A stretch of DNA of 23,793 bases, from assembly GCA_016196885.1 (NCBI GenBank), contig JACPWU010000016.1, positions 1 to 23,793 on the forward strand, read 5' to 3'. Shown here piece after piece: positions 1,954 through 21,073 of this stretch. The DNA is from Chlamydiota bacterium. GTDB taxonomy: Bacteria; Auribacterota; JACPWU01. Each line of letters begins with the position of its first letter. The stretch's first letter is position 1. The notes under the pieces were generated by a model. It had not been told where the DNA came from and did no database searches. It worked only from the letters and a program-made list of their open reading frames with translations. The position numbers were made by a program, and so were the translations under genes.

Positions 1954-2043
1954 GGGCCAAGGGTCAAAGGTCAAGGGTCAGGAAAAAATCTTCCATTTCT
2001 TGACCCTTGACCCTTGCCGCTTGACCCTGTTTTTTTGACCCTG
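1954..2043. repeat. Intergenic tandem-repeat hairpin 1 (unit GGTCAA[G/A]G / CTTGACC)
   Basis: Left arm is GGGCCAAGGGTCAAAGGTCAAGGGTCAGG. Right arm is CTTGACCCTTGACCCTTGCCGCTTGACCCTG, plus an extra TTGACCCTG at 2035-2043. 1971-1985 pairs with 1996-2010 around a 10-nt loop, and 1961-1967 pairs with 2021-2027. It fills the rpsA-stop to tyrS-start gap. Confidence 0.85.
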
Positions 2044-2047
2044 CTTT

Positions 2048-3709
2048 TTAAGCTTTAGACTTCTTAGAAGAGGCACCCATCTCCTCAAGGTCTTTCATGC
2101 TGAGGGCAATTCTTCTCTCGGCCTGTTCAACTCGAAGGATAATGGCCTTGACCCCCTCCCCTTCTTTAACCACATCCTCAATTTTCTTGAAATCGCGACG
2201 TGTCAATTGAGAAATATGGATCAGGCCTTCAATCCCACCCTCAAGCTCTACAAAGGCTCCGAAGCCAGTGACCTTGGTGACTTTTCCTTCAATGATCTCA
2301 CCTGGCTTATACTGCTCAGGCAAATGAACCCAAGGATCTTCTTTGAGCTCTTTAACACTTAAGGAAACCTTTTTATTTTCTGCGTCAACGGACAGGACTA
2401 CAGCCTCTACTTCATCTCCCTTTTTCAAAACCTCAGAGGGATGGTTGATTTTTCGCGTCCAGGAAAGATCCGAGATGTGAATCAGTCCATCGATGCCAGG
2501 CTCAATTTCCATAAAGGCGCCATAAGCAACCAAATTACGAATTAAACCCTTCACGCGAGTGCCCTGGGGATATTTCTGAGCAATGACGTTCCAGGGATTC
2601 AGTTCTGTTTGTTTGACTCCTAAAGAAAGCTTTTTATTGGTAGGATCAATTTCAAGAACCACCGCCTCAATTTCATCATCCAGTTTCAAGATTTCAGAAG
2701 GGTGATTAATCCTTTTAATCCAGGAAAGCTCTGAAATATGAAGAAGCCCCTCGATTCCCTTTTCCAGTTCGATAAAGCCACCGTAGGGAACAATGTTCAC
2801 CACACGCCCTTTCACTTTTTTGCCGACTGGATATCTTTCTTCGGCCTTATCCCAGGGGCTGGGCTGAAGCTGCTTTAATCCCAGAGAAACTCTTTCTTTC
2901 TCTTTGTCAAAATCTAGAATCAAAACCTGAACCTCATTGCCCACGGACAAAATCTCTGAAGGATGATTGATTCTCCCCCAACTCATGTCTGTGATGTGAA
3001 GCAGTCCGTCAATACCATTTAAATCAACGAAGGCTCCGAAATCCGTGACATTTTTGACAATGCCTTTTCGAACCTCTCCCACTTTAATTTGTTCCAGGAG
3101 CTTACTGCGTCCCTCCTTGCGATGCTCTTCTAAGAGTTCTCGTCTAGAAAGAATGACATTTCTTCTTTCGAGATTAATTTTGATCACCTTGAAGGTATAA
3201 ACCTTGCCCAAATACTGATCGAGAGAAATGTCGCGTAGCGGCTTGACATCAATTTGAGAGGCAGGCAAAAACGCCTCCATTCCAATGTCTACCATGAGGC
3301 CGCCCTTGACCTTTTTACAGACGCGGCCATCCACAGTTTGGCCTTCCTTACACGAGGCCATGATGCGTTCCCAACCCAAAACTTTATCTGCTTTTTGCTT
3401 GGAAAGAACGACGACCCCTTCATCATTCTCTTTTGCTTCTAAATAAACTTCAATCACATCCCCAAGTTTAGGAATACCCCCTGAACGAAATTCTTCGAGG
3501 GGAATAAGGCCCTCAGATTTGTAGCCGATATCCACCAAGACTTCTTTGTTGCGAATATCAATCACAGTTCCCTTGACAATCTTTTCCTCTTCAAGGTCTT
3601 TAAAAGTGCTTTCGTATAATTTCTTAAAGTCTTCTCCTCCAATAAGTTGTTCCTTTTCTTCTGTATTCACCATGTCTACCTTTTTCTCCTCATTCTGGGG
3701 CTTACCCAT
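2048..3709 (-). CDS. rpsA: 30S ribosomal protein S1 (six S1/OB repeats)
   Basis: 553 aa with recurring S1-domain blocks (G.V..V..FGAFV.L..G..GL.HIS.LSW..I.HPSE.L repeated). GAGGA lies 6 nt upstream of the ATG. Confidence 0.95.
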   Translation of the reverse strand: MGKPQNEEKKVDMVNTEEKEQLIGGEDFKKLYESTFKDLEEEKIVKGTVIDIRNKEVLVDIGYKSEGLIPLEEFRSGGIPKLGDVIEVYLEAKENDEGVVVLSKQKADKVLGWERIMASCKEGQTVDGRVCKKVKGGLMVDIGMEAFLPASQIDVKPLRDISLDQYLGKVYTFKVIKINLERRNVILSRRELLEEHRKEGRSKLLEQIKVGEVRKGIVKNVTDFGAFVDLNGIDGLLHITDMSWGRINHPSEILSVGNEVQVLILDFDKEKERVSLGLKQLQPSPWDKAEERYPVGKKVKGRVVNIVPYGGFIELEKGIEGLLHISELSWIKRINHPSEILKLDDEIEAVVLEIDPTNKKLSLGVKQTELNPWNVIAQKYPQGTRVKGLIRNLVAYGAFMEIEPGIDGLIHISDLSWTRKINHPSEVLKKGDEVEAVVLSVDAENKKVSLSVKELKEDPWVHLPEQYKPGEIIEGKVTKVTGFGAFVELEGGIEGLIHISQLTRRDFKKIEDVVKEGEGVKAIILRVEQAERRIALSMKDLEEMGASSKKSKA

Positions 3710-3734
3710 ATTATTCCTCGACTTAAGTCTGAGT

Positions 3735-3763
3735 AAGGTATCATTGGCCTAAAAGCTTGTCAA
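3735..3763 (-). promoter_or_regulatory. Candidate sigma70-type promoter for rpsA
   Basis: The minus strand reads TTGACA (3758-3763), a 17-nt spacer ending in TGA, then TACCTT (3735-3740). That is a perfect -35 with an extended-10-like TGn and a weak -10. It lies in the only long minus-strand intergenic gap without a hairpin. Confidence 0.3.
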
Positions 3764-4416
3764 ATACTTAATTGCAGCCTGTTTTTTAAATTCTTAATGC
3801 TGTCCATCACTTGATTGCTAATTGTTTGGTAAATTTCCTCGCTCCCCTTTTTCTGATAAAGCTCTTGAAAATCAAGACGAGTGCCTATCATGACCCTCAA
3901 TTTTTTAAATCTGGGCCATTTGCTGCCCTTGGGTAAGATTTGATGAGCACCCTGAATATAAATGGGGACAACGGGCGCTTGACTTTTGTGTGCGATGAAT
4001 CCGACGCCCATTTTGGCTTCTTGAAGTTCTCCATCCAAACTTCGCGTCCCTTCCGGAAAAAGAATCAGGGCCTGCCCCCCTTTGAGAAGACGAATCGCCT
4101 GTTTCAAGCTTCCGGGAGTGGGCTCATCTCGATCTACAGGAATGCAATTCCAAAGTTTAAAGAGAAGATTTGCCAGAGGGTGTCGCATGAGAGAGGACCT
4201 TGCAAAATAATACATTTTCCGAAAAGAGGAGGTCCCAACAATGGGTGGATCTAAAAAGCTAGAATGATTGGCGGCCAGAATACAAGCGCCTTTCTTAGGA
4301 ATATTTTCTTTTCCATAGACGCTGCGTCGAAAAAGGACATCATAAATAAACCTGAAGCTAAAATAGCCCCAGCGGTAAACAAGAATGTTAATGATGCGAT
4401 AAAATGAGGATGCCAT
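3760..4416 (-). CDS. plsC: 1-acyl-sn-glycerol-3-phosphate acyltransferase
   Basis: HX4D motif (ANHSSFLDPP) and FPEGTRS motif are present. The N-terminus is hydrophobic. Confidence 0.85.
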   Translation of the reverse strand: MASSFYRIINILVYRWGYFSFRFIYDVLFRRSVYGKENIPKKGACILAANHSSFLDPPIVGTSSFRKMYYFARSSLMRHPLANLLFKLWNCIPVDRDEPTPGSLKQAIRLLKGGQALILFPEGTRSLDGELQEAKMGVGFIAHKSQAPVVPIYIQGAHQILPKGSKWPRFKKLRVMIGTRLDFQELYQKKGSEEIYQTISNQVMDSIKNLKNRLQLSI

Positions 4417-4418
4417 GT

Positions 4419-5261
4419 TTACTTAAGAACTTTTCCTGCCTTCTCAAAAAAAGAAAGAAGAGAAAACGGATCTCCCTTGTTTATTTTTTTCTCGAGTTGG
4501 GAAATTTGATTTAAAAACTCATGAAGTGCTACCTTTAGATAAGCTTGGTTTAAAGAGGAAATCTCTGCCCATAATTTTGGGGAACTGTGAGCAATCCGCG
4601 TCATGTCCCGCCAGGCCTCCCCTGCCAAGCCTAAATAATCCCTTTTCCCAGATAATGTTTTGGCTAAACAAAAAGAAAGGAGGTGGGGTAAATGACTGAT
4701 ATAGGCAAAAATTTTATCATGTTCTTCTGCAGATTTAACCACGGGAGTCATTTTTAATTTTTTCCAAAAGCGAATTGATTTTTGAAGGGTCTCGCCAGAA
4801 GTGTGGGTATCCGGAGTCAAGATGCAAACAGCCTTTTCAAATAAATTGGCCCGCGCGGCGTCCGGGCCCTTTTTTTCTGAGCCCGCAATGGGGTGGGCCC
4901 CCATATACTGAACTTTTCTCCCCAATATCTTTCGATAAGACTGCATCACCTCCCCTTTGACACTGACTACATCTGTCACGATTTGCTTTTTAGAAAGAAA
5001 GGGCGAGATTTTTTTTAGAAGATTTTCTACGGCCGAGGGGGGAACAGCAAGGATAATCCAATCGCAATCTAAAACACCCTGAACAACATCTGTCGTGGCA
5101 ACGTCGGCCATCTTTTTATTCAAGATTTTTTTGATGTCACGGGAATGATGGACAACGCCAATCACTTTTGTTACGGAGGCGTTTTTCTTTAGAGACAGAG
5201 CCAATGAAGCACCGATGAGGCCCATGCCGATGATACATATTTTGTCTTTTTTTAAAGTCAT
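4419..5261 (-). CDS. tyrA: Prephenate (or arogenate) dehydrogenase
   Basis: N-terminal Rossmann motif ICIIGMGLIGASLA and GAHPIAGSE motif are present. The ORF track starts at TTG 5282. I prefer the ATG at 5259-5261 (MTLKKDKICIIG). Confidence 0.85.
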   Translation of the reverse strand: MTLKKDKICIIGMGLIGASLALSLKKNASVTKVIGVVHHSRDIKKILNKKMADVATTDVVQGVLDCDWIILAVPPSAVENLLKKISPFLSKKQIVTDVVSVKGEVMQSYRKILGRKVQYMGAHPIAGSEKKGPDAARANLFEKAVCILTPDTHTSGETLQKSIRFWKKLKMTPVVKSAEEHDKIFAYISHLPHLLSFCLAKTLSGKRDYLGLAGEAWRDMTRIAHSSPKLWAEISSLNQAYLKVALHEFLNQISQLEKKINKGDPFSLLSFFEKAGKVLK

Positions 5262-5282
5262 AGATGCACTTATCGCGTTCAA

Positions 5283-5352
5283 AGGTTTAAAGGTTCAAAA
5301 GTTCAAAGGAGGGAAAGCTTTTAAACCTTTGAACTTTTGAACCTTTGAACTT
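5283..5352. repeat. Intergenic tandem-repeat hairpin 2 (unit GTTCAAA[A/G]G)
   Basis: 5292-5309 (GGTTCAAAAGTTCAAAGG) pairs perfectly with 5326-5343. The stem extends to about 27 bp (5283-5309 with 5326-5352, including G-U pairs). The loop is 16 nt. Confidence 0.9.
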
Positions 5353-5372
5353 GTTTTTAGATGAACTTGCTT

Positions 5373-6392
5373 TTAAATTTCTCTCCCCACTGCATGCGCA
5401 ACGGGCTTTAATTCTTCCATCAACTTTACAAACATGCTGGGATAAAGAGATTGAGCTCCATCTGAAAGAGCTTTTTCTGGGCAGTTGTGCACTTCCAAAA
5501 TAAGACCATCCGCTCCGCAAGCAACGGATGCCTTGGCCATGGGAGGAATTAAATCACGTTTACCCGTTCCATGGCTGGGGTCTGAAATGATCGGAAGATG
5601 ACTGAGCGACTTGATTAAGGGAATGGCACTTAAATCCAATGTGTTTCGAGTCATGTCCTCAAAGGTGCGAATCCCTCGTTCGCAAAGAATCACATTTGGG
5701 TTTCCATTGCTCAAAATGTATTCCGCGGCCATTAAATATTCTGTGATGGTGGTCATCATTCCCCGTTTTAGAAGAACGGGTTTTTTCGATTTTCCCACTT
5801 CCTTTAAGAGATTGAAATTTTGAACATTTCTAGCACCCACTTGAAGAATATCGGCAAATTCTTCAAAGGCTTCAATGTCGCGGGTGTCCATAATTTCTGT
5901 GCAGACGGGCATCCCTGTTCTTTCACGGGCCTCTGCCAAAATTTCCAAACCATGGCGACCTAATCCCTGAAAGGCATAAGGCGAAGTTCGAGGTTTATAA
6001 GCCCCGCCTCTTAAAATGGTGGCGCCCCCTTTTTTGACTTCATCGGCAATTTCAAACATCATTTTTTTATTTTCAACCGAGCAAGGGCCCGCAATCGCAA
6101 CGACACGTCTTGCACCAATTTTCACTCCCCTGACATCTACGACAGTATCTTCTTTCTTAAATTCTCGACTGACCAGTTTGAAAGGTTTGAGAATCCGAAC
6201 AACGGATTCCACTCCTTCTAGGGCCTCCACATGAGGCTTGGCTTTAAGCACGTTTTCTTCAGAACCAATCACGCCCACAATGGTTCTCTCGACCCCATGG
6301 CTGACCACAGCCTTCAGGCCATGCTCTTCCAATAATTGAATGACGTGCTCTTTTTGTTCTTGAGAGATATTTATTTTTAAGACAATGATCAT
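5373..6392 (-). CDS. aroF: 3-deoxy-7-phosphoheptulonate (DAHP) synthase, type I-beta with N-terminal ferredoxin-like regulatory domain
   Basis: It appears colinear, from my recollection, with the Thermotoga maritima-type enzyme. Shared features are the MIIVLK...[19 protein letters not shown]-domain, [17 protein letters not shown], and [11 protein letters not shown]. Confidence 0.92.
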
Positions 6393-6405
6393 TTTAACCC
6401 TTTCT

Positions 6406-6488
6406 AGCGTTCAGCGCATAGCGTACAGCGGATAGTTTATAAGGAGTTGTTTTTTTCCTGACCTCTGAACGCCATACGCTGTACGCTC
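6406..6488. repeat. Intergenic tandem-repeat hairpin 3 (unit AGCGT[T/A]CAGCG)
   Basis: Left arm is AGCGTTCAGCGCATAGCGTACAGCGG. Right arm is CTCTGAACGCCATACGCTGTACGCTC. Perfect pairings are 6420-6430 with 6477-6487 and 6408-6415 with 6465-6472. The right arm contains the pheA stop codon (6487-6489). Confidence 0.85.
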
Positions 6489-7551
6489 ATTTATTAAATG
6501 GATAACTCCCCAAAATTTTTAGAAAATGACAATGTTTTTCCAGGGATTTCAATGCAGACTTCACATGGGCATCATCCTGATGCCCGATTAAATCAATGTA
6601 AAAATAGTATTCCCAAGCTTTCTTTTTAGAAGGGCGAGATTCAATTTTGGTTAAATTGATGTGATGTTTTTTGAAGGGGACCAGCATTTCATAAAGGGCC
6701 CCGACTTTATCCCGGACAGAGAAGAGAATGGAGGTTTTGTCGCGGCCGGTACGCTTGGCTGCGTGAGTTCCCACTATCAAAAAGCGGGTGACATTGGTTT
6801 GAAAATCTTCCACGCCTTCTCTTTGAATGCGAATGGGATAATATTGGGCAGCCAGACTGCTTGCAAGCGCTGCTGCACCTTTTTCTTTTGAAGCCACTTC
6901 AGCCGCACGTGAAGTGCTGGAGGCACTGATTTGATCTGCATGAGGTAAATGCTCTTTAAGCCATAGCCGGCATTGACCAAAAACTTCTGGTTTTGAATAA
7001 ACTTTTTTAATTTGATTCAAGGAGCTGTTAGATAAAAGAGAGTGATTGATTTTAAGAAGAACCTCTGAGCAAATTTTAAGGTCGGAATCAATGAACATGT
7101 CCAGCGTATGGGTTACAGCACCGTCTGTTGAATTTTCAATGGGGACGACTCCATAGTCCGCTCTTCCTTTTTCTACTTCGAAAAACACGTCTGAAATATT
7201 TTCAAGGGGGACATATTCCACAGAAGCGCCAAACTTTTGAATGGACGCCTGATGCGTAAAAGTCGCCATGGGGCCTAAATAAGCCACGCGAAGCCCCTTT
7301 TCAACAGCGAGCGCGGCCGACATGATCTCACGAAAGATAGCCTTGAGAGATCCTCGAGGCAAGAGAGAGTCTTTTGTATGGGCTAAAATGTTTTCATAAA
7401 CATTCATTTCCCTCTCTGGAGAATAAATGTTTTGACCCTGTTTGATCTTTTGATGCCCAATATCCAAGGCAAGTTGAGTTCGTTCATGGATGAGGGCAAC
7501 CAATTTGCGATCAATACAATCAATTTTGCTGCGCAACTTCTTTAAGTTCAT
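6487..7551 (-). CDS. pheA: Bifunctional chorismate mutase / prephenate dehydratase (P-protein)
   Basis: An N-terminal CM helix (LRSKIDCIDRKLVALIHERTQLALDIG) is followed by a PDT domain (VAYLGPMATFTHQA, TRFLIVG). A C-terminal ACT domain carries ESRPS (LTKIESRPSKKK). Confidence 0.92.
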   Translation of the reverse strand: MNLKKLRSKIDCIDRKLVALIHERTQLALDIGHQKIKQGQNIYSPEREMNVYENILAHTKDSLLPRGSLKAIFREIMSAALAVEKGLRVAYLGPMATFTHQASIQKFGASVEYVPLENISDVFFEVEKGRADYGVVPIENSTDGAVTHTLDMFIDSDLKICSEVLLKINHSLLSNSSLNQIKKVYSKPEVFGQCRLWLKEHLPHADQISASSTSRAAEVASKEKGAAALASSLAAQYYPIRIQREGVEDFQTNVTRFLIVGTHAAKRTGRDKTSILFSVRDKVGALYEMLVPFKKHHINLTKIESRPSKKKAWEYYFYIDLIGHQDDAHVKSALKSLEKHCHFLKILGSYPFNK

Positions 7552-8122
7552 GGCTCACCTTGTGAGATGTGACGTGCCGTAATTCTTCCCTCTGAGGTAA
7601 ATCGTCCAAACTTTTTAATCCAAAATAATCCAGAAATCTTTCTGTGGTGACATAAAGAAAGGGATGCCCCATGATGTCTTTTTTTCCCTGAGTTCGAACG
7701 AGGCCCTTTTCAATCAACTTTTTTAGAACGCCATCCACATTCACGCCACGAATTCCTTCAATCTCAACCTTCGTGATGGGCTGACGATAGGCAATAATCG
7801 CCAACGATTCCAGGGCAGGCTTGGACAAGCCCTCGGCATGTTTGACCTGTAAAAATTTTTTCACCCAGTCTGCGTTTTGAGATTCTGTGCATAACTGGTA
7901 TTTTCCGCCAATTTCAGTGATTTGATAGCCTCTTTGATTTTGAACATACTCTATTTTTAATTCTTCTAAAAGAGCCGCAATGTCTTGATGCGTGAGACGA
8001 AATCCCTCCTCGAGCGTTTCCTGGATTTCATCCACTGTGATAGCCTCTGAGGCAACCACCAGCAAAGATTCCATGATGGATTTAATCCGTTTTAAATCAT
8101 CCGCCGAAACATGTTCTGACAT
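7520..8122 (-). CDS. scpB: Segregation and condensation protein B
   Basis: ScpB core motif is SKPALESLAIIAYRQPITKVEIEGIRGV. It sits directly downstream of scpA. Its 3' end overlaps the pheA start by 32 nt. Confidence 0.88.
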   Translation of the reverse strand: MSEHVSADDLKRIKSIMESLLVVASEAITVDEIQETLEEGFRLTHQDIAALLEELKIEYVQNQRGYQITEIGGKYQLCTESQNADWVKKFLQVKHAEGLSKPALESLAIIAYRQPITKVEIEGIRGVNVDGVLKKLIEKGLVRTQGKKDIMGHPFLYVTTERFLDYFGLKSLDDLPQREELRHVTSHKVSHELKEVAQQN

Positions 8123-8124
8123 AT

Positions 8125-8850
8125 TTAAAGAGCCGTCCTTTGAATTTGAATATTTTGAAAATGGGTTTCTTGTACCACTTTTAATTTTTTTAACCGAATC
8201 AATTCCAGAAGCGCTAAAAAAGTTGCGACCATTTCCATTCTTGAAGAAAGGTCTGAAAAGAGTTCTTTGAATTCAAGCATGGGCTTGAGAGACATTCTCT
8301 CCTCTATAAAAATCATTTTTTGCTCAACGGAAACTTCCTCATCAAAAATTTGATTGAGATCTTCCCGAATCTGGACTTTTTTTAAAATTTCAGAAAAGGC
8401 GTTTAAAAGATCAAGAATTTGTGTTTCGCCTAAATCGAGCGGCAGCTCTGAGAAATCAGCCTGATGAACCGCCTCCCTTGGAAAATAAAGCCGCCGAGCC
8501 TCTTCTTTTTTTTGAAGGACTCCAGACACCTCTTTGAATTTCTTGTATTCCAGCAATTGCCGAATCAGCTCTTGCCTTGGATCTAAATCATCCTCTTCTT
8601 CACCCTCAACAACCTCATCCGGAGGAAGCAATGTCTTACTCTTGATGTAAATTAAATTCGCTGCCATCCACAGAAATTCGCCAGCAATCTCTAAATCCAG
8701 TATTTCCATCAACTCAAGATATTTCAAATACTGGTCAGTAATTTCAACCATTGGAATATGATAAATATCCACCTCGTTCTTTTTGACGAGGTAGAGCAAA
8801 AGGTCTAAGGGACCCTCAAAGATGTCTAGTTTTACTTTATATTGAGTCAT
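8125..8850 (-). CDS. scpA: Segregation and condensation protein A (kleisin)
   Basis: The N-terminus FEGPLDLLLYLVKKNEVDIYHIPMVEITDQYL is typical of ScpA. It is adjacent to scpB. Confidence 0.88.
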   Translation of the reverse strand: MTQYKVKLDIFEGPLDLLLYLVKKNEVDIYHIPMVEITDQYLKYLELMEILDLEIAGEFLWMAANLIYIKSKTLLPPDEVVEGEEEDDLDPRQELIRQLLEYKKFKEVSGVLQKKEEARRLYFPREAVHQADFSELPLDLGETQILDLLNAFSEILKKVQIREDLNQIFDEEVSVEQKMIFIEERMSLKPMLEFKELFSDLSSRMEMVATFLALLELIRLKKLKVVQETHFQNIQIQRTAL

Positions 8851-8856: not shown

Positions 8857-8948
8857 GAGAATTTGGAATACAGAATACAGAATTCAGAATCCAGAAGAAA
8901 CAAATTCCTCATTATTATTCTGTCTTCTGCCTTCTGACTTCTATGTTC
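8857..8948. repeat. Intergenic tandem-repeat hairpin 4 (CAGAAT family, copy 1)
   Basis: Left arm is GAATACAGAATACAGAATTCAGAATCCAGAAG (8866-8897). Right arm is ATTCTGTCTTCTGCCTTCTGACTTCTATGTTC (8917-8948). 23 of 32 positions are complementary, as five CAGAA/TTCTG blocks separated by 1-2 nt mismatches. It abuts the trpS stop. Confidence 0.8.
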
Positions 8949-9940
8949 TAAAGTCCCATTACATCTCTGACCTCTGTGAGTGTATCTTGAGCAAATTTTC
9001 TTGCCTTTTGAGTTCCTGTCTCTAGAACTTCACTGAGATGACGAGGGTTTTTCTCTAATTCAGCTCGTTTCTCATGAATGGGGGCGAGCCGCGACTTCAT
9101 GTTTCCAAACAAGTGCATTTTACAATCAGTGCAGCCCCGAAGCGCCTCCCGACATTCATGCGCAACTGTCTGGGTTTCAGCCGGGCTAAATATTTCATGA
9201 TAAGAATAAATCGTGCATATCTCCGGATGCCCCTTGTCTTTGCGGGTCACCCTTGCGGGGTCCGTGAGGGTATTCATTACCTTTTTTTTGAGAACCTCCC
9301 CCGTATCTGAAAGATAAATCGCATTCCCATAACTTTTGCTCATTTTTCGCCCGTCCATACCCAGAACCTTGGGGGTTTTCGTTAAAGCACTTTGAGGCTC
9401 TGGAAAAACCTCTTTTTTATAAATAAAATTGAACCGCCGAACCATTTCTCTCGCAAGTTCCAAATGCGGCAATTGATCCAGTCCTACCGGCACCCGCGTT
9501 GCCTTATAAGCCAAAATGTCAGAAGCCTGCAAAACGGGGTAGCCCAGGAAACCATAGGTCTTGAGGTCTTTTTCTTTAATTTCCTGAAGCTGCTCTTTGT
9601 AGGTCGGATTGCGCTCCAGCCAGGCGAGTGGCGTCAGCATGGACAAAAGAAGGTGTAATTCTGCATGTTCTTTTACATGAGATTGGATGAAAAGGGTTGA
9701 TTTGTTAGGATCAAGACCCGAACTTAGATAATCAATGGCGACTTCGCGAATGTTGTTTTTAAGAGCTTGAGGATTTTCATATTCGCTCGTCAAGGCATGC
9801 CAATCCGCAATCATGAAAAAACATTCGTCAAAGACTTTTCCAATCTGGCCCTCTAAAATCTTCCAGTTCTCAATGGCGCCGAGAAGATTTCCCAGATGTA
9901 AACGATCTGTCGGTCTTGTTCCGCTTAGAACGCGTTCCAT
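8948..9940 (-). CDS. trpS: Tryptophan--tRNA ligase (with C-terminal Cys4 motif)
   Basis: HIGH-type motif (RLHLGNLLG) and KMSKS (GRKMSKSYGN) are present. Length is 330 aa. Confidence 0.93.
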   Translation of the reverse strand: MERVLSGTRPTDRLHLGNLLGAIENWKILEGQIGKVFDECFFMIADWHALTSEYENPQALKNNIREVAIDYLSSGLDPNKSTLFIQSHVKEHAELHLLLSMLTPLAWLERNPTYKEQLQEIKEKDLKTYGFLGYPVLQASDILAYKATRVPVGLDQLPHLELAREMVRRFNFIYKKEVFPEPQSALTKTPKVLGMDGRKMSKSYGNAIYLSDTGEVLKKKVMNTLTDPARVTRKDKGHPEICTIYSYHEIFSPAETQTVAHECREALRGCTDCKMHLFGNMKSRLAPIHEKRAELEKNPRHLSEVLETGTQKARKFAQDTLTEVRDVMGL

Positions 9941-9954
9941 AGAATGTTAATATA

Positions 9955-10037
9955 GCAGAATTCAGTAGTCAGAATCCAGAATCCAGAATAAATACCATTC
10001 CTTATTATTCTGACTTCTGTCTTCTGAATTCTGCTTC
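9955..10037. repeat. Intergenic tandem-repeat hairpin 5 (CAGAAT family, copy 2)
   Basis: 9955-9965 (GCAGAATTCAG) pairs perfectly with 10024-10034. The inner arms are further CAGAAT / [A/T]TTCTG units. It begins immediately after the recombinase stop (10038-10040). Confidence 0.88.
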
Positions 10038-10985
10038 TTACCCCCTCGGATGAAACTTCTGATGTACACTTTTAACTCTCGAGCGATCTACCATCGTATA
10101 AATTTGCGTAGTGGAGATATCGCAATGTCCTAACATTTCTTGAACCGCTCTTAAATCGGCCCCTCCTTCCAAAAGATGCGTCGCGAAAGAATGTCTCAAG
10201 GTATGGGGTGTGATTTCTTTTCGAATTCCACACAAGCGGGCACATTTTTTGATTCTCCCCCAGAGTGTCTGCCGGGTCAAATGCCTTCCCTGAGAGCCCA
10301 CAAAGAGATACTCTGAGACCTTTTCTCCCAAAATCATCGGCCTTGCCTTGCTCATATATTTCTGAATGGCCCTCAAAGAGGGAGCCCCCAAGGGCACAAT
10401 TCTTTCTTTGTTCCCTTTGCCAAACAATCGGACATAGCCCATTTGAAGATTCAGATCCAAAAGTTTTAGATGTGCCGCTTCAGAGACACGGGTGCCCGAT
10501 GCGTACATAAATTCAAGAATGGCCTTGTCTCTCAACCCTAAAGGAGTGCTTGAATCAGGTACCTTCAATAGTTTTTTAACCTCTTCGACATTTAAAACCT
10601 CAGGGAGGAGATGCCAGGTTTTGGGGCTCGAAAGAATTTCGGCCGGATTTTGAGAAAGGTATTCGTCTTTCAATAAAAATTTGAAAAAGGTGCGCAGCGT
10701 CGCTGTTTTTCTAGCCAGAGAACTTGCGGAAACCCCCTGGGCTTTTTTAAAATAGAGAAAATCCGTCAAATGCTGTGCGGTGATTTGATGAGCCGTTGTC
10801 ACTTTTTCCTTTTCCAGGAAGAGAAAAAATTGCTCGAGATCTAACTTGTAAGAAATTTGCGTATTTTGAGACAAACCCTTTTCAATCGCCAGATATTGAA
10901 TAAAATGTTCGAGTAAAGAAGTAAAAAGAGGGGTGTGAAGAATGCGTTTCTTTTCTTCTGGGTTTTGAATAGAGGATTTTTTCAT
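10038..10985 (-). CDS. Tyrosine site-specific recombinase, XerC/XerD family
   Basis: The C-terminal catalytic region is HTLRHSFATHLLEGGADLRAVQEMLGHCDISTTQIYT. An N-terminal SAM-like core-binding domain is present. I cannot separate XerC from XerD by eye. Confidence 0.88.
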   Translation of the reverse strand: MKKSSIQNPEEKKRILHTPLFTSLLEHFIQYLAIEKGLSQNTQISYKLDLEQFFLFLEKEKVTTAHQITAQHLTDFLYFKKAQGVSASSLARKTATLRTFFKFLLKDEYLSQNPAEILSSPKTWHLLPEVLNVEEVKKLLKVPDSSTPLGLRDKAILEFMYASGTRVSEAAHLKLLDLNLQMGYVRLFGKGNKERIVPLGAPSLRAIQKYMSKARPMILGEKVSEYLFVGSQGRHLTRQTLWGRIKKCARLCGIRKEITPHTLRHSFATHLLEGGADLRAVQEMLGHCDISTTQIYTMVDRSRVKSVHQKFHPRG

Positions 10986-14671: not shown

Positions 14672-14700
14672 TTGTAAAAACTCTATTCAAATGATATCAT
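14672..14700 (+). promoter_or_regulatory. Candidate sigma70-type promoter of the plus-strand island
   Basis: TTGTAA (14672-14677), a 17-nt spacer, then TATCAT (14695-14700). It lies about 30 nt upstream of the ATG at 14731, which has GAGGAG 7 nt upstream. Confidence 0.4.
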
Positions 14701-14730
14701 TAGCTCCAGAATTTAATGAGGAGAATGCTT

Positions 14731-15771
14731 ATGAAAAAATTTCTTGTTTCACTTTCGATTGTTTGCTTTTTAAGCGCCTTTGCATTTGCCGAGGATACGC
14801 TGCAATCCATGCACGATGCTTTTGGAAGGGGTTTCCAGGCTGTTAAATCAAAGAATAAAGAGGAAGCCGTTACTTGGTTTAAAAAAGCAGGAAATGACGC
14901 CACTCAAGCTCAAGAGTGGCGGGGATGTTTGGATGCAGGAAATGCGCTTCTGAAATTGGGATCCCCTCAAGATGCCGCTCCCCTTTTCCATGAAGCCTTT
15001 CAAATAGGACAATCTAAAAATGACTGGAGAATTTCTATTGCTTCAGGCTATGCCCTCGCAAGTCTTCCCCCAGACCTCCATGAGAAAGAGGCGGCGATTC
15101 AGGCCTTTTCTTCTGCGACCGAAGAGGCGAACAAAAAAAATGACTGGATTGGACTGACGGAAGCAGCCAAGGGCCTGATTCATGTGGGCGACACTTCTCA
15201 TGCGTCTCAAGTTCTCGCGGACACTCGCAAAGTTGTAGAAGCCACTCAAAATGCGAAGGGCGCCCAGGTGATTTCTGATCTCTATACCCAACTGGGGATG
15301 GCCAAAGAAGCAGAAGAAATGAAGGCAAAAAAAGAAAAATTTGAGCAAGCTCCAGGAGAATCGGGCCCGTATGTCGAGCCCCCTCCTGGGTGGAGCGCCA
15401 GCGGAGAAAGTGTGGCGAGCCCCTCTATTCCAAGTCCTGAACAGCAAAGAATGGCTCGAGAATCGGCTGACAAGGACATCGAAGCCAAAAATCAATATAT
15501 TGCGCAGCAAAGGGAAATAGAGGTCACCAGAGAACGCGAGGCCAACCAATACAGCTCCTATTATTACTATCCCTATGGCTATGCCTCCTACACAGCTTAT
15601 GAACCCTGGGGATGGGATCTTCTGACCCCCTGGGCTGATACTTATGCAGGTTATTACACTTATAGAGACGGCTATTACTCCTACAGCGGAAGCTACACCG
15701 GCTTTGGTTTCGCCTACGGCTATGCAGATGGGAATAGTTCTTTTGGCGTCAGCGTTTTTGTGAGCGATTAA
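14731..15771 (+). CDS. Secreted Sel1/TPR-like repeat protein with Tyr/Gly-rich C-terminal tail (function unknown)
   Basis: The signal peptide is MKKFLVSLSIVCFLSAFAFA/ED. Three ~40-aa helical repeats are marked by A..WF.KAG, QEW, NDW, NDW. A Pro-rich linker and a charged helix follow. The last 73 residues contain 19 Tyr. The start is set at ATG 14731 because GAGGAG sits at 14718-14723. The ORF track starts at 14716. Confidence 0.7.
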   Translation: MKKFLVSLSIVCFLSAFAFAEDTLQSMHDAFGRGFQAVKSKNKEEAVTWFKKAGNDATQAQEWRGCLDAGNALLKLGSPQDAAPLFHEAFQIGQSKNDWRISIASGYALASLPPDLHEKEAAIQAFSSATEEANKKNDWIGLTEAAKGLIHVGDTSHASQVLADTRKVVEATQNAKGAQVISDLYTQLGMAKEAEEMKAKKEKFEQAPGESGPYVEPPPGWSASGESVASPSIPSPEQQRMARESADKDIEAKNQYIAQQREIEVTREREANQYSSYYYYPYGYASYTAYEPWGWDLLTPWADTYAGYYTYRDGYYSYSGSYTGFGFAYGYADGNSSFGVSVFVSD

Positions 15772-15774
15772 AAC

Positions 15775-15996
15775 ATGATTAAAAACCATCGTTTGCTTGA
15801 AGAACTGGATCAGAAATACCTACGCCAAAAACGCAGAACTTATCATCAAGCCCTGGCCATTTATGAAGCCCTGTGGAAAGAAGCTGTGTATCTTGGAAAG
15901 CTCCCGCTTAAAAACATGATGGAAGGCTTGGAAAAAGACTTCAGAATCGCAAAGGCTCTGAATCATCCAGATTATGTTCGAAAAAATCCTCGCTAA
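15775..15996 (+). CDS. 73-aa helical protein of unknown function, partner of the downstream nucleotidyltransferase
   Basis: The ATG lies 4 nt after the upstream stop. The 3' end overlaps the next gene by 23 nt, suggesting translational coupling. No motif is recognisable. Confidence 0.5.
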   Translation: MIKNHRLLEELDQKYLRQKRRTYHQALAIYEALWKEAVYLGKLPLKNMMEGLEKDFRIAKALNHPDYVRKNPR

Positions 15997-16531
15997 GATT
16001 GCAAAAGTTTTAAATGAAAAAAAAATCCCTTACATGGTTATCGGGGGTCAGGCCTTACTTCAGTGGGGAGAGCCGCGCCTGACAGAAGATATCGATATCA
16101 CTTTAGGTTTTACATCCGATCGCTGCCCAGAGGTCACAACTCTTCTTCAAAAGATAGACATTAAGCCTTTAAAAGAGGCAACGGGTGACTTTATTAGAAA
16201 AACCAGCGTTTTACCATGCCAGGAATTAACAGAAGGAATTCGCATCGATTTTATCTTTTCCTTCTTACCTTATGAGGAGGAAGCGATTAGAAGAGCAAAA
16301 GGAATTCTGATAGAAAATCAAAAAGTAAAATTCGCTTCCGCAGAGGATTTAATCATTCATAAAATGTTTGCCGGAAGATCCAGAGACATTGATGACGTTA
16401 AAAATATTTTAATAAAACAAAAAGAAAATTTGGACTATTCCTATATTCATAAAAATCTACAGGAATTTTCTTCTTTGGAAGGGTATAAGAATATTCTTAA
16501 ACATTTTCAAGATTTAGAAAAAGACATTTAA
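15974..16531 (+). CDS. Minimal nucleotidyltransferase-fold protein (Pol-beta superfamily, AbiEii/DUF2204-like)
   Basis: The hG[GS]-x(n)-DxD signature is VIGGQALLQWGEPRLTEDIDITL. A third acidic strand is RIDFIF. The C-terminal helix AEDLIIHKMFAGRSRDIDDVKNIL is typical of small standalone NTases. Confidence 0.65.
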   Translation: MFEKILAKIAKVLNEKKIPYMVIGGQALLQWGEPRLTEDIDITLGFTSDRCPEVTTLLQKIDIKPLKEATGDFIRKTSVLPCQELTEGIRIDFIFSFLPYEEEAIRRAKGILIENQKVKFASAEDLIIHKMFAGRSRDIDDVKNILIKQKENLDYSYIHKNLQEFSSLEGYKNILKHFQDLEKDI

Positions 16532-17856
16532 TCCCTTTCTATTACATCCACAATGGCTTGACAAGTCATCTCTAAAAGCATCTGGAGCTCTTTTTGTTGA
16601 ATAGCCAAAGGGGGCATGAGAACAATCACATTTCCCAAGGGCCGCAAAATTGCACCGTATTTTCTAGCTTGCTGACAGACTTTAATACCCATTTTTTCTC
16701 TAAGAAGAAATTTTTCAAGTTCAATGCCAACCATCATGCCGCATTGACGAATTTCTTTAACATGAGAGAGCCTATTAAATCTAACCAGTTCTTTTTTCAA
16801 GAAGACAATATTTTTCTGAACTTTTTTGAGTAATTTTTCCTTTTTAAATAATCTAAGGCTTTCAAGCGCCACCGCACAAGCCAAGGGATTTCCCGTATAG
16901 GTGTGACCATGAAAGAAAGTTTTGAACTGCGAATATTCTCCCAGAAAGGCGTTGTAAATTTTTTCCTTCACCAAGGTGGCAGCCAAAGGTAGATAACCTC
17001 CTGTCATCCCTTTCGCAACCGCCATGAGATCAGGCGTAACTTTCTCATGCTCACAAGCAAACATTTTTCCTGTCCGTCCAAAGCCCGTGGCCACCTCATC
17101 CACAATCAAAAGAATGTTGTGACGATCACACAGCTTGCGAACGGCCTTTAAGAAACCATTTGGGTGAAGGAGCATCCCCGCCGCTGCTTGAATTAAGGGC
17201 TCCATCACAACGCCAATGATCCTATTTTTATTTTGAACCATCACCTCTTCCATTTTCTGAATCAATGGATTTGTTGCATCCTTGTTCCTAAAAAAGTAGG
17301 GAGAAGGAAAATGAATCACATCAAAAAGAAGCGGCTTAAAAATGCGATGAAAAAGATCCATACCTCCGACACTTACTGAACCCAAGGTATCGCCATGATA
17401 GTCTTCACGGAAACTGATGAATTTTGTCCTCTGCGATCCGGGTTCTATATGCTGCCAGTATTGGTAGGCCATTTTGAGAGCGACTTCGACCGCCGTTGAA
17501 CCATTGTCGGAGTAAAAAACCTTGGTGAGTCCTTTGGGAGCGATTTGAATCAATTCTTTTGCCAATTCAATGGAAGGAACATTGGCCAACCCTAAAAGTG
17601 TACTGTGTGCAATCTTCTTTAACTGCCTTGTGAGCGAGCGATCCAATGCCTTCTTCCGATGCCCATGCACCGTTACCCAAAGGGATGAAACACCATCTAA
17701 ATATTTTTTACCATCCGTATCCTGTAAAAAGACTCCGTCGCCACTTTCAATGATCAGAGGATGATCTTCTACCCAATCTTTCATTTGGGTAAAAGGGTGC
17801 CAAACGTAAAGCTTGTCGAGTTCTTGTAAACGTAATGTTTTAGAATTTTTTGTCAT
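16528..17856 (-). CDS. bioA: Adenosylmethionine-8-amino-7-oxononanoate aminotransferase
   Basis: It is a class III aminotransferase with DEVATGFGRTGKMFA. The N-terminus (LWHPFTQM-type, here VWHPFTQMKD) is typical of BioA. It is adjacent to bioF. Confidence 0.9.
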   Translation of the reverse strand: MTKNSKTLRLQELDKLYVWHPFTQMKDWVEDHPLIIESGDGVFLQDTDGKKYLDGVSSLWVTVHGHRKKALDRSLTRQLKKIAHSTLLGLANVPSIELAKELIQIAPKGLTKVFYSDNGSTAVEVALKMAYQYWQHIEPGSQRTKFISFREDYHGDTLGSVSVGGMDLFHRIFKPLLFDVIHFPSPYFFRNKDATNPLIQKMEEVMVQNKNRIIGVVMEPLIQAAAGMLLHPNGFLKAVRKLCDRHNILLIVDEVATGFGRTGKMFACEHEKVTPDLMAVAKGMTGGYLPLAATLVKEKIYNAFLGEYSQFKTFFHGHTYTGNPLACAVALESLRLFKKEKLLKKVQKNIVFLKKELVRFNRLSHVKEIRQCGMMVGIELEKFLLREKMGIKVCQQARKYGAILRPLGNVIVLMPPLAIQQKELQMLLEMTCQAIVDVIERD

Positions 17857-17867
17857 TTTTTGAGAAA

Positions 17868-17952
17868 CCAGAATTCAGAATTCAGAAGTCAGAATAAAAA
17901 CAAATAACATCCTTATCATTCTGAATTCTGGATTCTGAATTCTGAATTCTGC
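17868..17952. repeat. Intergenic tandem-repeat hairpin 6 (CAGAAT family, copy 3)
   Basis: 17869-17887 (CAGAATTCAGAATTCAGAA) pairs perfectly with 17933-17951 (19 bp). 17890-17895 also pairs with 17925-17930. The right arm lies inside the last 12 codons of bioF. Confidence 0.92.
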
Positions 17953-19112
17953 TTTGCAAAATTTAAAACCTTCAACACCCTATCTAAATGTTTATTCGTA
18001 TGGTTCGCCATCAAGCTAAACCGAATTCTCCCCTCTCCTTCTGGAACCGTTGGCGGGCGAATGGCCGGGGCATAAACTCCTCCTTTCATTAAAACTTCAG
18101 ATGCTCGTAAAGTTTCCTCATCCCCGCCGACGATCCATGGATAAATGGGCGTTTGATCTTCGGGCATTTTAAGTCCTATATGATTGAGACCCTTGTAAAA
18201 ATATTCTACATTTTTTCTTAGACTTTTCACCTTGTCAGAATTTTTTTCCAAGATTTGAATGGCCTTTAAACTCGCAGCACAAGCACCTGCAGGAAGGGCT
18301 GTAGTATAAATAAAACTCTTTGATTGGTTACGCAGATAATCTATTAAACTTTCTTTTCCTGCAATAAATCCTCCCAAAGATCCGAGGGCCTTGCTAAAAG
18401 TGCCCATGATAACAGCCACTCTATTGGGATCCAATCCAAAATACTCCAAAGCCCCTCTCCCTTTCTCGCCCAACACCCCCGTGGCATGGGCTTCATCTAT
18501 CATCAAGTGCGCACCATGCCTTTCACAAAGCGCGAGCAATAAAGGCAAAGGTGCAATATCTCCATCCATGCTAAAAAGGGTTTCCGTGATAACCCATTTT
18601 TTTCTAAAATTTTTGTCGGAGCCGTTTTTTAAAATTTCTTCCAAGCGATTCATGTCTTGGTGAGGATACACCCAAAGTTTAGATTGAGCCACACGACAAG
18701 CCTCCACAATGCTGGCATGATTGAGGCGATCCAAAACAATCAAGTCGTCCGAATTCATCAGCGCGGAAATAGCCCCCAAGTTGGCCATGTAACCTGTGGG
18801 ATACACAAGGGCGCCTTCAGTCCCTTTCCATTTTGAAATCGCTTCTTCCAGGGACTCATGAAGAGAGGTGTTCCCGCTGATGAGACGCGATGCCCCGGAT
18901 CCCGACCCATATTTCAGGGTCGCCCGAACGGCGGCCCATTTCACTCGAATATCCTGGGCAAGACCCAAATAATTGTTCGAGGAAAAATTAATATATGCCT
19001 TAGAACCCATGGAAATCAAGGGACCCTTATTTTGGGTCACTTTTCTCAAGGATCGATAGCGATTTTTATCTTTGAGAGTTTTAATTTCTTCTTCAAATTC
19101 TAAAATTTGCAT
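17916..19112 (-). CDS. bioF: 8-amino-7-oxononanoate synthase
   Basis: It is an alpha-oxoamine synthase with HATGVLGEKGRG and the PLP-lysine motif TFSKALGSLGG. The C-terminal QNSEFRIQNSE* is encoded by the hairpin arm. Confidence 0.9.
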   Translation of the reverse strand: MQILEFEEEIKTLKDKNRYRSLRKVTQNKGPLISMGSKAYINFSSNNYLGLAQDIRVKWAAVRATLKYGSGSGASRLISGNTSLHESLEEAISKWKGTEGALVYPTGYMANLGAISALMNSDDLIVLDRLNHASIVEACRVAQSKLWVYPHQDMNRLEEILKNGSDKNFRKKWVITETLFSMDGDIAPLPLLLALCERHGAHLMIDEAHATGVLGEKGRGALEYFGLDPNRVAVIMGTFSKALGSLGGFIAGKESLIDYLRNQSKSFIYTTALPAGACAASLKAIQILEKNSDKVKSLRKNVEYFYKGLNHIGLKMPEDQTPIYPWIVGGDEETLRASEVLMKGGVYAPAIRPPTVPEGEGRIRFSLMANHTNKHLDRVLKVLNFAKQNSEFRIQNSE

Positions 19113-20276
19113 TTACATTTTCCTCGCCAAAACCCCACACACATGGCCTCCAAAACCATAGGCCAAGCCGAGAAGAACGCTCATTTTTTTCTCACGCCCC
19201 CAACGAGGCGTGTAATCCAAATCACACTGGGGGTCTGGTGTTTCCAAATTAAGCGTCGGAGGAATAAAATTGTGTTGCATACACATCAAACTTAAAATGA
19301 GTTCCACCGCTCCACTGGCGCCCATCATGTGGCCCGTGAAAGGTTTGGTAGAACTGAATGAAATATGATCGACATCATTTTTAAAAAAACTTTTGATCCC
19401 ACAGGTTTCAACCCAATCGTTCCAGACCGTCCCAGTTCCATGGAGATTAACATAATCTATAGACGAAGAAGCAATGTTCGCCTTCTTAAAAAGAAGCTGA
19501 AGAAGACGCTGAATGCTTTCACCGTGAGAAGCCATTTTGATTTCGCCAGATGCATCCGCTACATTTTCTACAGCCAAAATTTCTGCATAAATTTTGGCGT
19601 TTCTTTTTCGGGCCCTCTCAAAAGATTCAAAAACCAAAACACCAGCCCCCTCGCCTAAAACAGTTCCCGATCTTCTGTGATCAAAAGGTTTTAGAAGAAC
19701 CTCAGCAGACTCCCCCTTTTGGGGGCGAGCGAGAATGCCCGCCCTTTCGTAAGCCTTGATTAAAAAGGGATCAAGGACAGAATCGCTTGCCCCTGCAAGA
19801 ACGACATCGGACCTTCCCTCTTCAATCCATCGCTTGGCCCATTGCAAAGACTGGAGACCTGTACTGCAAGCTGAAACCAAATTTAAACAGGGTCCCTTGA
19901 TTTCGAAAAAATTCATCAATGAAGAATTGATTTTTTCGAGAAAAAATCCTTGGGGATTTCTGATTTGGCGAGCCAGATCCCCTTTGCTGGTACTGACCGT
20001 AAGACCGATACGCTCGGGGTTCTCATTCTCAAGCGAAACACCAGAGTCCAAGAGGGCAGAACGTGCAGCATCGAGGGCAAATTTCCCGCTTCGAGATTCG
20101 CTCGTTTCTTCTGGAATTTTAGCCAGGGGAATTTTTAGGCCATTTTCTTCAAGAAAGTGAATGCTGGACCTTGAGTCCTTCAAGAACTGAAAAACCTGAC
20201 GGGGATTTTCTCCCATCGCTGTTTTCAACCCAAGGCCTGTCACCACCACACGTGAAGAATGGATAGAAGCTTTCAT
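19113..20276 (-). CDS. Beta-ketoacyl-ACP synthase, KAS I/II (FabF/FabB)-like, embedded in the bio operon
   Basis: The Cys-His-His triad motifs are VSACSTG, NLHGTGT and STKPFTGHMMGASG. At 387 aa it is shorter than typical FabF. Its stop codon directly abuts the bioF ATG (TAAATG). Confidence 0.85.
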   Translation of the reverse strand: MKASIHSSRVVVTGLGLKTAMGENPRQVFQFLKDSRSSIHFLEENGLKIPLAKIPEETSESRSGKFALDAARSALLDSGVSLENENPERIGLTVSTSKGDLARQIRNPQGFFLEKINSSLMNFFEIKGPCLNLVSACSTGLQSLQWAKRWIEEGRSDVVLAGASDSVLDPFLIKAYERAGILARPQKGESAEVLLKPFDHRRSGTVLGEGAGVLVFESFERARKRNAKIYAEILAVENVADASGEIKMASHGESIQRLLQLLFKKANIASSSIDYVNLHGTGTVWNDWVETCGIKSFFKNDVDHISFSSTKPFTGHMMGASGAVELILSLMCMQHNFIPPTLNLETPDPQCDLDYTPRWGREKKMSVLLGLAYGFGGHVCGVLARKM

Positions 20277-20982
20277 GACTCAACACTCTATCTTCTAATG
20301 TGAAAATTTGTCCAGTGATTTGACCCAGACCCGAAAGAAAAACAATGGCCTTCGCAATTTCTCCAAGAGGTCTTTCTTCCGCTTTCTTTTTCAAATCCTG
20401 AACTCCTTGAGTCATCGTCGTAGAAAGTATTCCAGGAATAACGGCATTCACTCGAATTCCATAAGGGCGTAGTTCTGCCGCTGAAGAATGGGTCAAGGAC
20501 AAAAGACCCGCCTTGGAAGCCGCATAATTGCTTTGTCCAACATTTCCCCTGAGCCCCACGGAGGAGGCAACGTTTAAAATGGCCTTCTCCGCCACATCTT
20601 GAAATCCCATCCATCTGGCATAAGCCTGCGTACAAAGAAAAGGCCCCTTCAGATTGACCGCCATCACCTCATCCCAATCGTTTTCGGACATTCGAACAAT
20701 ATTTTGATCTTGCACAATTCCAGCATTATTGACAAGCATGTGGACCTCTCCCCATCTCTCACGAATGAGATTGAAAAGGCGATTCACGTCATCCGATAGA
20801 GAAATATCCGCCTGAATCAATTCTATTTTTCCCCCTTGTCCTTGAATTTGCTCCTCAAGAAGCAAAGCCTCTTTTTTAGACCGGCGATAGATTCCGATCA
20901 CCTCGTACCCTCTTTTTGAAAAGGCGTGAGCCAATTGAGCGCCTAAACCACGAGAGGCCCCGGTGATGAGTACAGTCTTCAT
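20149..20982 (-). CDS. Short-chain dehydrogenase/reductase, FabG (3-oxoacyl-ACP reductase)-like
   Basis: Motifs are VLITGASRGLG, NNAG and S...YAASKAG (YxxxK). The start is set at the ATG at 20980-20982 (MKTVLITG) because the longer ORF-track start (21003) reads into a hairpin arm. The 3' tail overlaps the KAS gene by 128 nt. Confidence 0.85.
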   Translation of the reverse strand: MKTVLITGASRGLGAQLAHAFSKRGYEVIGIYRRSKKEALLLEEQIQGQGGKIELIQADISLSDDVNRLFNLIRERWGEVHMLVNNAGIVQDQNIVRMSENDWDEVMAVNLKGPFLCTQAYARWMGFQDVAEKAILNVASSVGLRGNVGQSNYAASKAGLLSLTHSSAAELRPYGIRVNAVIPGILSTTMTQGVQDLKKKAEERPLGEIAKAIVFLSGLGQITGQIFTLEDRVLSHESFYPFFTCGGDRPWVENSDGRKSPSGFSVLEGLKVQHSLS

Positions 20983-20989
20983 GAAGGAA

Positions 20990-21073
20990 AGTCCACGGTC
21001 CATAGTCGATAGTCCACAGTTTTAAAGGAATCATTTATTTCTATAGACTATGGACCTCGGACTGTCGACTGTG
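20990..21073. repeat. Intergenic tandem-repeat hairpin 7 (units GTCCAC/GGTCCATA/GTCGATA)
   Basis: 20997-21007 (GGTCCATAGTC) pairs perfectly with 21046-21056. 21009-21012 pairs with 21041-21044, and 20990-20994 with 21059-21063. It fills the ExbD-stop to SDR-start gap. Confidence 0.88.

Follow-up and report, generated by a model that had tools for sequence, protein, structure and literature searches.

Hairpins with heptamer-array stems between the genes of a conserved array from a Chlamydiota genome: a new host for a kind of repeat described in cyanobacteria and Geobacter

[quoted passage not shown] In Geobacter metallireducens, the "predicted global regulator binding sites" of classes 1-3 are opposite-strand pairs of tandem 7-9-nt repeats, found 3' of one gene and 5' of the next, with the members of a pair about 80-100 nt apart. 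Class 3 consists of five copies of MTYCTGA, and runs such as TCCTGAATTCTGAATTCTGACTCCTGAATTCTG are given in supplementary Figure S5 of that study; the sites occur in one species of the genus only and were interpreted as DNA binding sites for a protein of the IHF/HU type (Aklujkar 2009, PMC2700814). The present study concerns seven hairpin elements whose arms are arrays of short tandem units and which lie between the genes of a 23,793-nt contig (JACPWU010000016.1, assembly GCA_016196885.1, Chlamydiota bacterium), referred to throughout as the window; the analysis also matched it to contig JACOUD010000064.1 of the assembly GCA_016178005.1. An earlier note on this DNA, made from the letters alone, treated the elements as possibly new. 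They are instead of the same kind as the cyanobacterial STRR hairpins and the Geobacter paired sites; the host is new and the kind has already been described. At a probability of roughly 55%, we read them as selfish or near-neutral dispersed repeats, STRR-like in type, whose survival is limited to dispensable space.

The likeness to the STRR hairpins covers several features. The arms in the window are tandem 7-nt units (8 nt in element 2), a hairpin arises from an array and its complement in the gap between co-transcribed genes, and many unit types occur in one genome. Dispersal through the genome may be a further likeness, the 24 kb read having seven elements, three of them belonging to one family. 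Two Nostoc loci from the present scan (L021 and L084) show the identical architecture. One difference is the host, which is not a heterocystous cyanobacterium and whose proteins carry the NCBI label "Chlamydiae bacterium." Another is that whole-element copying and rapid turnover between sister genomes are both seen here, while a statement of either was not found in the STRR literature searched. The window units also differ from the classical STRR1-3 units that Mazel reportedly described in 1990. For G. metallireducens, whose genome has 60% G+C, the likeness extends to sequence: MTYCTGA of class 3, as ATTCTGA, is the CAGAAT unit of elements 4-6, which carry ATTCTGA/CTTCTGN in 3-5 copies per arm. 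The other units differ, however, and the Geobacter sites were read as DNA binding sites rather than as hairpins or mobile repeats.

Other described repeats share parts of this architecture. Repetitive extragenic palindromic (REP) sequences, bacterial interspersed mosaic elements (BIMEs), and the REP doublets known as REPINs are likewise extragenic, hairpin-forming, multi-copy, present in both orientations, and found in operon gaps, and REP hairpins stabilize upstream mRNA. However, each REP family has one conserved imperfect palindrome and a partner gene for a REP-associated tyrosine transposase (RAYT), whereas the stems in the window are tandem 7-nt arrays of many differing units. In the 5' untranslated region of Haemophilus influenzae hmw, a heptamer array controls expression and provides one arm of a long RNA hairpin, which RNase III cleaves, and changes in repeat number there depend on transcription and on RNase III (PMC12721329). 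The use of a heptamer array as one arm of a long RNA hairpin is common to both systems, but hmw is a single phase-variation locus, its other arm is a G-rich non-repeat, and the hairpin lies in a 5' untranslated region, not between cistrons. TAACTGA direct heptamer repeats have been reported from Beggiatoaceae, cyanobacteria, and Bacteroidetes (MacGregor 2015, PMC4679880). These are also intergenic heptamer arrays beside start codons, patchy across phyla and of no known function, but nearly all are direct (one inverted case in 170 sets) and they have a single unit.

Tandem Repeats Finder (TRF) and RNA folding recover, in place, all seven elements that the earlier note had reported, and their common architecture is real (Table 1). 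For five elements TRF reports arrays in both arms; for elements 3 and 7 it reports one in a single arm. Folded as sense-strand RNA, every element gives a single long hairpin. The energies range from -31 to -50 kcal/mol, and the z-scores of all seven against dinucleotide shuffles from -3.9 to -7.3; the helices extend over 80-102 nt and contain 25-40 pairs, around loops of 4-22 nt. Six elements have a 7-nt unit and element 2 has an 8-nt one, while the TRF period is 7 in five elements, 14 (two heptamers) in element 3, and 8 in element 2. Across the window the units are GGGTCAA, GTTCAAAG, YAGCGNN, CAGAATN, and AGTCCAY. Tandem units in the arms had been described correctly in the earlier note, but the unit it gave as CAGAAT is CAGAATN and the supposed 11-mer at 6406-6488 is four heptamers YAGCGNN. 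Five of the six pairings it had checked by hand are exact, including 18/18 in element 2 and 11/11 in element 7; the sixth, 1971-1985 with 1996-2010, pairs at 14/15 positions and not at 15/15. In element 4, 5-bp CAGAA/UUCUG blocks are paired and the 2-nt spacers are mostly mismatched.

The placement of the helices is also largely as had been reported, in that they fill the space from stop to start, but pairing ends 0-15 nt ahead of the next start codon rather than 6-21 nt. On the other side, pairing sets in at points that range from 1 nt inside the upstream stop codon to 11 nt past it, except at bioF, where it sets in 45 nt within the reading frame. The elements sit between the stop codon and the next ribosome-binding site, which is left unpaired; the helix of element 3, for example, begins within the pheA stop codon, and the aroF ribosome-binding site AAAGGG stays free. 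Two additional decayed units bring element 1 to the rpsA stop codon, and decayed units of element 2 likewise reach that of aroF. The final 11 codons of bioF, together with its stop codon, are made of CAGAAT units from the upstream arm of element 6 (window 17916-17951). In the sister genome described below, the last ~9 codons of scpA (11835-11861) are GCTAGAA units. The elements remodel protein C-termini, at bioF in the window and at scpA in the sister. The minus strand carries nearly every gene of the window, and from tyrS to exbD all co-directional gaps of more than 20 nt hold either an element or the plain hairpin at 13021-13048, with the 50-nt gap upstream of rpsA as the sole exception; this census stands as first made.

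Table 1. Positions and evidence for the seven elements and for other features of the window
Feature	Position	Strand	Unit, structure or content	Evidence
Element 1, rpsA to tyrS gap	1945..2049	minus	unit GGGTCAA/TTGACCC (7 nt); helix 2036-1945, 36 pairs	TRF arrays 1953-1980, 1999-2028, 2021-2049; fold -50.2 kcal/mol, z -7.15
Element 2, aroF to tyrA gap	5277..5372	minus	unit GTTCAAAG/CTTTGAAC (8 nt); 18-bp perfect core	TRF arrays 5277-5309, 5318-5352; fold -31.2 kcal/mol, z -5.85
Element 3, pheA to aroF gap	6405..6488	minus	heptamer YAGCGNN; TRF period 14	TRF array 6405-6435; fold -37.8 kcal/mol, z -5.64
Element 4, trpS to scpA gap	8857..8950	minus	CAGAAT family	TRF arrays 8866-8896, 8918-8942; fold z -3.91
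Element 5, xerD to trpS gap	9954..10038	minus	CAGAAT family; loop AAUAAUAAGGAAU	TRF arrays 9970-9989, 10008-10038; fold -36.7 kcal/mol, z -6.98
Element 6, bioF to bioA gap	17859..17960	minus	CAGAAT family; 19-bp perfect core	TRF arrays 17869-17895, 17918-17951; fold -41.2 kcal/mol, z -7.27
Element 7, exbD/tolR to fabG-like gap	20987..21073	minus	heptamer AGTCCAY/AGTCGAT	TRF array 20990-21020; fold -34.6 kcal/mol, z -5.47; 11/11 pairing
Plain 12-bp hairpin, ispB to ligA junction	13021-13048	minus	overlaps ligA start codon	fold -13.9 kcal/mol, z -5.37
16S rRNA gene, 5' 542 nt	1-571	minus		
Genes, first block		minus	5' part of 16S rRNA, tyrS, rpsA, plsC, tyrA, aroF, pheA, scpB, scpA, trpS, xerD, ligA, ispB, doxD	
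Genes after three plus-strand open reading frames		minus	bioA, bioF, fabF-like, fabG-like, tolR/exbD, exbB	

An Rfam search at a permissive E-value returned only sub-threshold matches to microRNA hairpins (25-46 bits against cut-offs of 65-95). No sequence is common to all seven elements, and no transposase is encoded in the window. The features of miniature inverted-repeat transposable elements are also lacking: comparison of filled and empty junctions and alignment of copies gave no target-site duplication, and homology between copies stops within the arrays. A conserved end motif, AAGCAG/CTGCTT, was considered and rejected, its mild enrichment being explained by the phase of CAG-type units. 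An assembly artefact is ruled out because the same sequences are present in independent assemblies and the same architecture is present in isolate genomes. Two Logan short-read contigs (L002 and L204) are 100% identical to contigs from metagenome-assembled genomes (MAGs) of the same organisms; L002 starts and stops within hairpin arms, L204 enters TRF arrays at both ends, and the elements appear to break de Bruijn assemblies.

Comparison with relatives, taken as fetched contigs that encode relatives of the window TrpS, shows how quickly the elements change. The next labelled relatives of this TrpS are Omnitrophica, at ~60% identity. The contig L203 (GCA_016178055.1) encodes a TrpS ~80% identical to that of the window, is its sister in a TrpS single-gene tree, and keeps the gene order xerD-trpS-scpA-scpB-pheA-aroF-tyrA-plsC-rpsA-tyrS. 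It has ten heptamer hairpins in 21 kb, and the units at orthologous gaps mostly differ from those of the window (GCTCGAG, AGTAAGT, CGGATTT, and GGCTCGA). Only in the trpS to scpA gap is the L203 unit (GACAGAG/TTCTGAC) related to that of the window, and between scpA and scpB there is an element in L203 and a 2-nt gap in the window. In L205 and L207 (both with 76% TrpS identity) and in L210 (63%), the junctions of the array downstream of trpS overlap or measure 13-78 nt, with a ribosome-binding site visible in some; L205 and L210 have no element in the array and L207 has one. When junctions are compared with those of the relatives, protein termini are conserved right up to the elements. The elements are recent, unstable, lineage-specific additions to a conserved gene array. 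Because the window and L203 are sisters in the TrpS tree, element gain in their common ancestor is the simpler reading, to which the tree lends weak support. One aroF to tyrA element is common to L203 (14812-14925) and L207 (7613-7720), which otherwise share few elements; its 5' arm of CGGATTT units ends in the called tyrA ATG, and its loop and 3' arm (CAATCCG x4) would be translated as an N-terminal extension of TyrA.

Whole elements are copied within a genome, in either orientation. In L203, the regions 9745-10000 (xerD to trpS) and 18126-18288 (rpsA to tyrS) have 117 nt in common at 94.9% identity in inverted orientation, including the non-repetitive loop, and there are four copies of a TTTTGAT family. 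Among window elements 4-6, identity over ~80 nt with the loop included is 78-82% (82% over 78 nt for elements 5 and 6), and the contig L162 has two copies at 93.7% identity. The different units at different loci, pointed out in the earlier note, do not support independent origin: elements 4-6 are one family with a common loop, and the sister has 95%-identical copies in opposite orientation. Changes within elements are seen in L162 and L187, a syntenic pair of 80-90% nucleotide identity from the metagenome scan with TrpS. One element differs in a single arm by a 16-nt indel (two octamers), another occurs in only one of the two genomes, and one orthologous element has a different unit in both arms; for the last, RNAalifold finds 5/16 predicted pairs altered on both sides with pairing kept. 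Whole-unit indels, whole-element copying, and compensatory arm changes fit the earlier suggestion of selection on structure or a shared generating mechanism. L187 also has a 137-nt insert after trpS (11025-11160) that is missing from L162 and holds a non-tandem inverted repeat, ccccacaccca / tgggtgtgggg, twice.

If the elements are selfish or near-neutral repeats, units would multiply through replication slippage, and whole elements would be copied to further gaps in either orientation, persisting only between a stop codon and the next ribosome-binding site. To our knowledge, no enzyme is known to mobilize them. That the occupied space is dispensable is suggested by protein termini that are conserved up to the element and by bioF in the window and scpA in L203, which read into the array. 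Complementarity of the arms might arise because one arm templates repair of the other; alternatively, tight junctions may tolerate only inserts that fold back, since a hairpin would hold the upstream stop and downstream start codons close in space. This would apply at junctions that were ancestrally overlapping and therefore presumably translationally coupled. Co-transcribed within operons, the elements would fold into RNA hairpins of 25-40 bp that may be cut by RNase III or block 3' exonucleases, as side-effects and not as the reason for their existence. Stems of this length are long enough for RNase III. Together with transcription within operons, this makes effects on mRNA processing or stability plausible, by analogy with the experiments on H. 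influenzae hmw (PMC12721329).

Several observations weigh against the selfish or near-neutral reading. In one element upstream of trpS, L162 and L187 share ~98% identity, against ~86% in the coding DNA that flanks it, which hints at constraint on at least some copies, and selection on structure would explain the compensatory changes in the same pair just as well. The 5-nt core CAGAA/TTCTG of the CAGAAT family is invariant, so covariation is uninformative, and pairing of the 2-nt spacers in CAGAA...TTCTG hairpins is 0.60 against 0.51 in shuffles (p = 0.07); an invariant core with spacers that are not clearly paired looks more like a sequence constraint than a structural one. There is no transposase in the window and no target-site duplication or sharp end at the junctions and copies compared, and the family sizes come from small samples (24 kb from the source genome, 21 kb from its sister).

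The rival explanations, namely RNA elements, binding arrays, growth in place, and terminators, are given lower probability than the selfish or near-neutral reading. The first holds that the elements are selected cis-acting hairpins in polycistronic mRNAs, serving as RNase III sites, as 3' exonuclease barriers that set cistron levels, or as devices coupling termination to initiation. All seven lie between co-directional genes, with their start at the stop codon and the next ribosome-binding site kept out of the pairing; their 25-40-bp stems suit RNase III; and the five compensatory pairs in one orthologous pair and the one element conserved at ~98% between flanks at ~86% also speak for it. The hmw hairpin of H. 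influenzae is cleaved by RNase III and controls expression (PMC12721329), and transcript stability or translational coupling has been proposed in the cyanobacterial literature (PMC2670836). However, relatives ~76% identical in TrpS have overlapping junctions without elements, orthologous gaps carry different units, and copies are found in either orientation. The sense strand is the more stable in 6/7 window elements and 4/9 elements of L203, and this total of 10/16 is no significant excess. In a census of 120 elements from all loci examined, with contexts taken from a crude stop-to-stop caller, 28% of the elements lie within stop-to-stop open reading frames against 85% of random windows, which makes the elements intergenic. 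Their gaps are 52 co-directional, 11 convergent, and 6 divergent, following a background of 967/150/146, so the special link to operon-internal co-directional gaps that had been suggested is not supported. RNA strand or operon context shows no sign of mattering, and we consider selected RNA hairpins an unlikely explanation.

A scan of one genome per species for CAGAATNCAGAATNCAGAAT, seeded with one unit, gave at least 120 loci. The matches listed include Nostoc and other cyanobacteria, Acidobacteriota, Planctomycetota, Verrucomicrobiota, Bacteroidota, Gemmatimonadota, Desulfobacterota, Thermodesulfovibrionales, Clostridia, and others. Among these matches, a reverse-complement partner stands within 130 nt of 40 of 129 CAGAAT arrays, against a null of ~1%, and likewise of 94 of 396 other short-period arrays in their loci. 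The same architecture with very different units occurs, again among the matches listed, in Acidobacteriota, Tepidisphaerales, Desulfuromonadaceae, Thermodesulfovibrionales, Thermoanaerobaculia, and Nostoc. The architecture is present in many phyla, patchily, and that CAGAAT recurs across phyla is in part an artefact of the pattern-seeded search. In a background set from the metagenome scan with TrpS (80 loci and 733 kb around trpS of distant relatives, TrpS identity <=58%), the density is 3.3 elements per 100 kb; 68 of the 80 loci are empty and two have five and seven elements. The density per 100 kb is 25 in the window and 48 in L203, with period 7 dominant. Abundance is patchy and follows lineage.

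The loops of the CAGAAT family also recur. ATAAGG is present in 6/19 loops of CAGAA...TTCTG hairpins, and the longer motif CAGAAT[GAC]ATAAGG stands beside an arm in loops of both this MAG and the Acidobacteriota MAG BP_25 (window 9990-10007 and 17896-17919; L006 5647-5694; L095 239-281). The common ATAAGG motif could reflect descent across phyla or could be functional; the viral scan gave no match to the loop motif. CAGAAT arrays are frequent on IMG/VR viral contigs (L211-L330), with an inverted partner in 10 of 128 among the matches listed, and one viral contig (L241) has 13 partnered short-period arrays in 10 kb. The occurrence of CAGAAT in Geobacter, Nostoc, Acidobacteriota, and this MAG of the Planctomycetes-Verrucomicrobia-Chlamydiae (PVC) group, the common loop motif, and the viral arrays together raise the idea that heptamer-stem hairpins are one unnamed pan-bacterial, self-propagating class that moves between phyla, possibly on viral DNA. 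We hold this idea only tentatively and think it improbable. If true, expansion and arm-to-arm homogenization would need an undiscovered mechanism, for which transcription- and RNase III-dependent repeat change, as at H. influenzae hmw, is a candidate.

The recurrence of CAGAAT, in G. metallireducens class 3 and, among the matches listed, in many phyla, can also be used to argue that a nucleoid-associated protein or global regulator binds the elements as arrays at the DNA level, which is how the Geobacter sites were interpreted. The strict 7-bp periodicity and the invariant CAGAA/TTCTG core with variable, mostly unpaired 2-nt spacers are consistent with this. However, the recurrence is in part produced by the search pattern, and the elements turn over rapidly between close relatives. 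The 24 kb of the window contain at least five unrelated units and the sister genome adds others, so that one sequence-specific protein could not recognize all of them; binding arrays are a doubtful explanation, with little probability.

Growth of each element in place, from a local seed by slippage and fold-back (inverted) duplication and with no copying between loci, is about as doubtful. A two-copy proto-array, AGTTATAAGTTGTAAG, stands in L205 at the pheA to aroF gap, which is occupied by (AGTAAGT)n in L203, and both the whole-unit indel in a single arm and the different units at different loci agree with such an origin. The array (GAATTCN)n, read from the sequence, is self-complementary at 6/7 positions, which allows a direct array to fold up on itself. 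Growth in place does not, however, account for the 117-nt, 95%-identical copies that L203 has in two unrelated gaps in opposite orientation with the non-repetitive loop included, for the copies of 93.7% identity in L162, or for the loop common to window elements 4-6. Atypical intrinsic terminators or attenuators would be strong hairpins directly after stop codons, as these are, and UCUUUUUAU stands 3' of element 1, but they are very improbable: as the earlier note maintained, the elements are not canonical terminators, a terminator scan of 1-20000 flagging none of the six elements there (element 7 was inspected by eye only), no consistent U-tract being found 3' of the elements, the loops measuring 4-22 nt, the essential downstream genes tyrS and trpS having no room for their own promoter in the gap, and the same operon working without elements in relatives.

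The hairpins occupy most of the free intergenic space of a conserved housekeeping array, extend two reading frames, and appear to break short-read assemblies, and thereby affect annotation, MAG contiguity, and operon models of this lineage. The same architecture has been found in many phyla without a mechanism since it was first noted in cyanobacteria. Since the window and L203, and likewise L162 and L187, show gain, loss, unit indels, and compensatory arm changes, these genomes can be used for studying the origin and possible role of the elements.

Other features of the window lie outside the repeat family. The plain hairpin at the ispB to ligA junction has no TRF array and no tandem units, and it could occlude ligA initiation. 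In a scan of 1-20000, the best sigma-70-like site is TTGACA-17-TATCAT at 724-696 on the minus strand, upstream of the 16S rRNA gene and at the 3' end of tyrS. Between doxD and bioA, the plus strand at 15775-16531 encodes a 73-aa open reading frame without a family match that overlaps a 185-aa nucleotidyltransferase of the DUF2204/DUF6036/AbiEii type, and the two resemble a toxin-antitoxin-like pair. Directly upstream of bioF-bioA, at 19113-21003, are fabF-like and fabG-like genes that both score under equivalog cut-offs and may supply pimeloyl-ACP for biotin synthesis; as listed, their reading frames overlap by 128 nt, so one start is probably mis-set.

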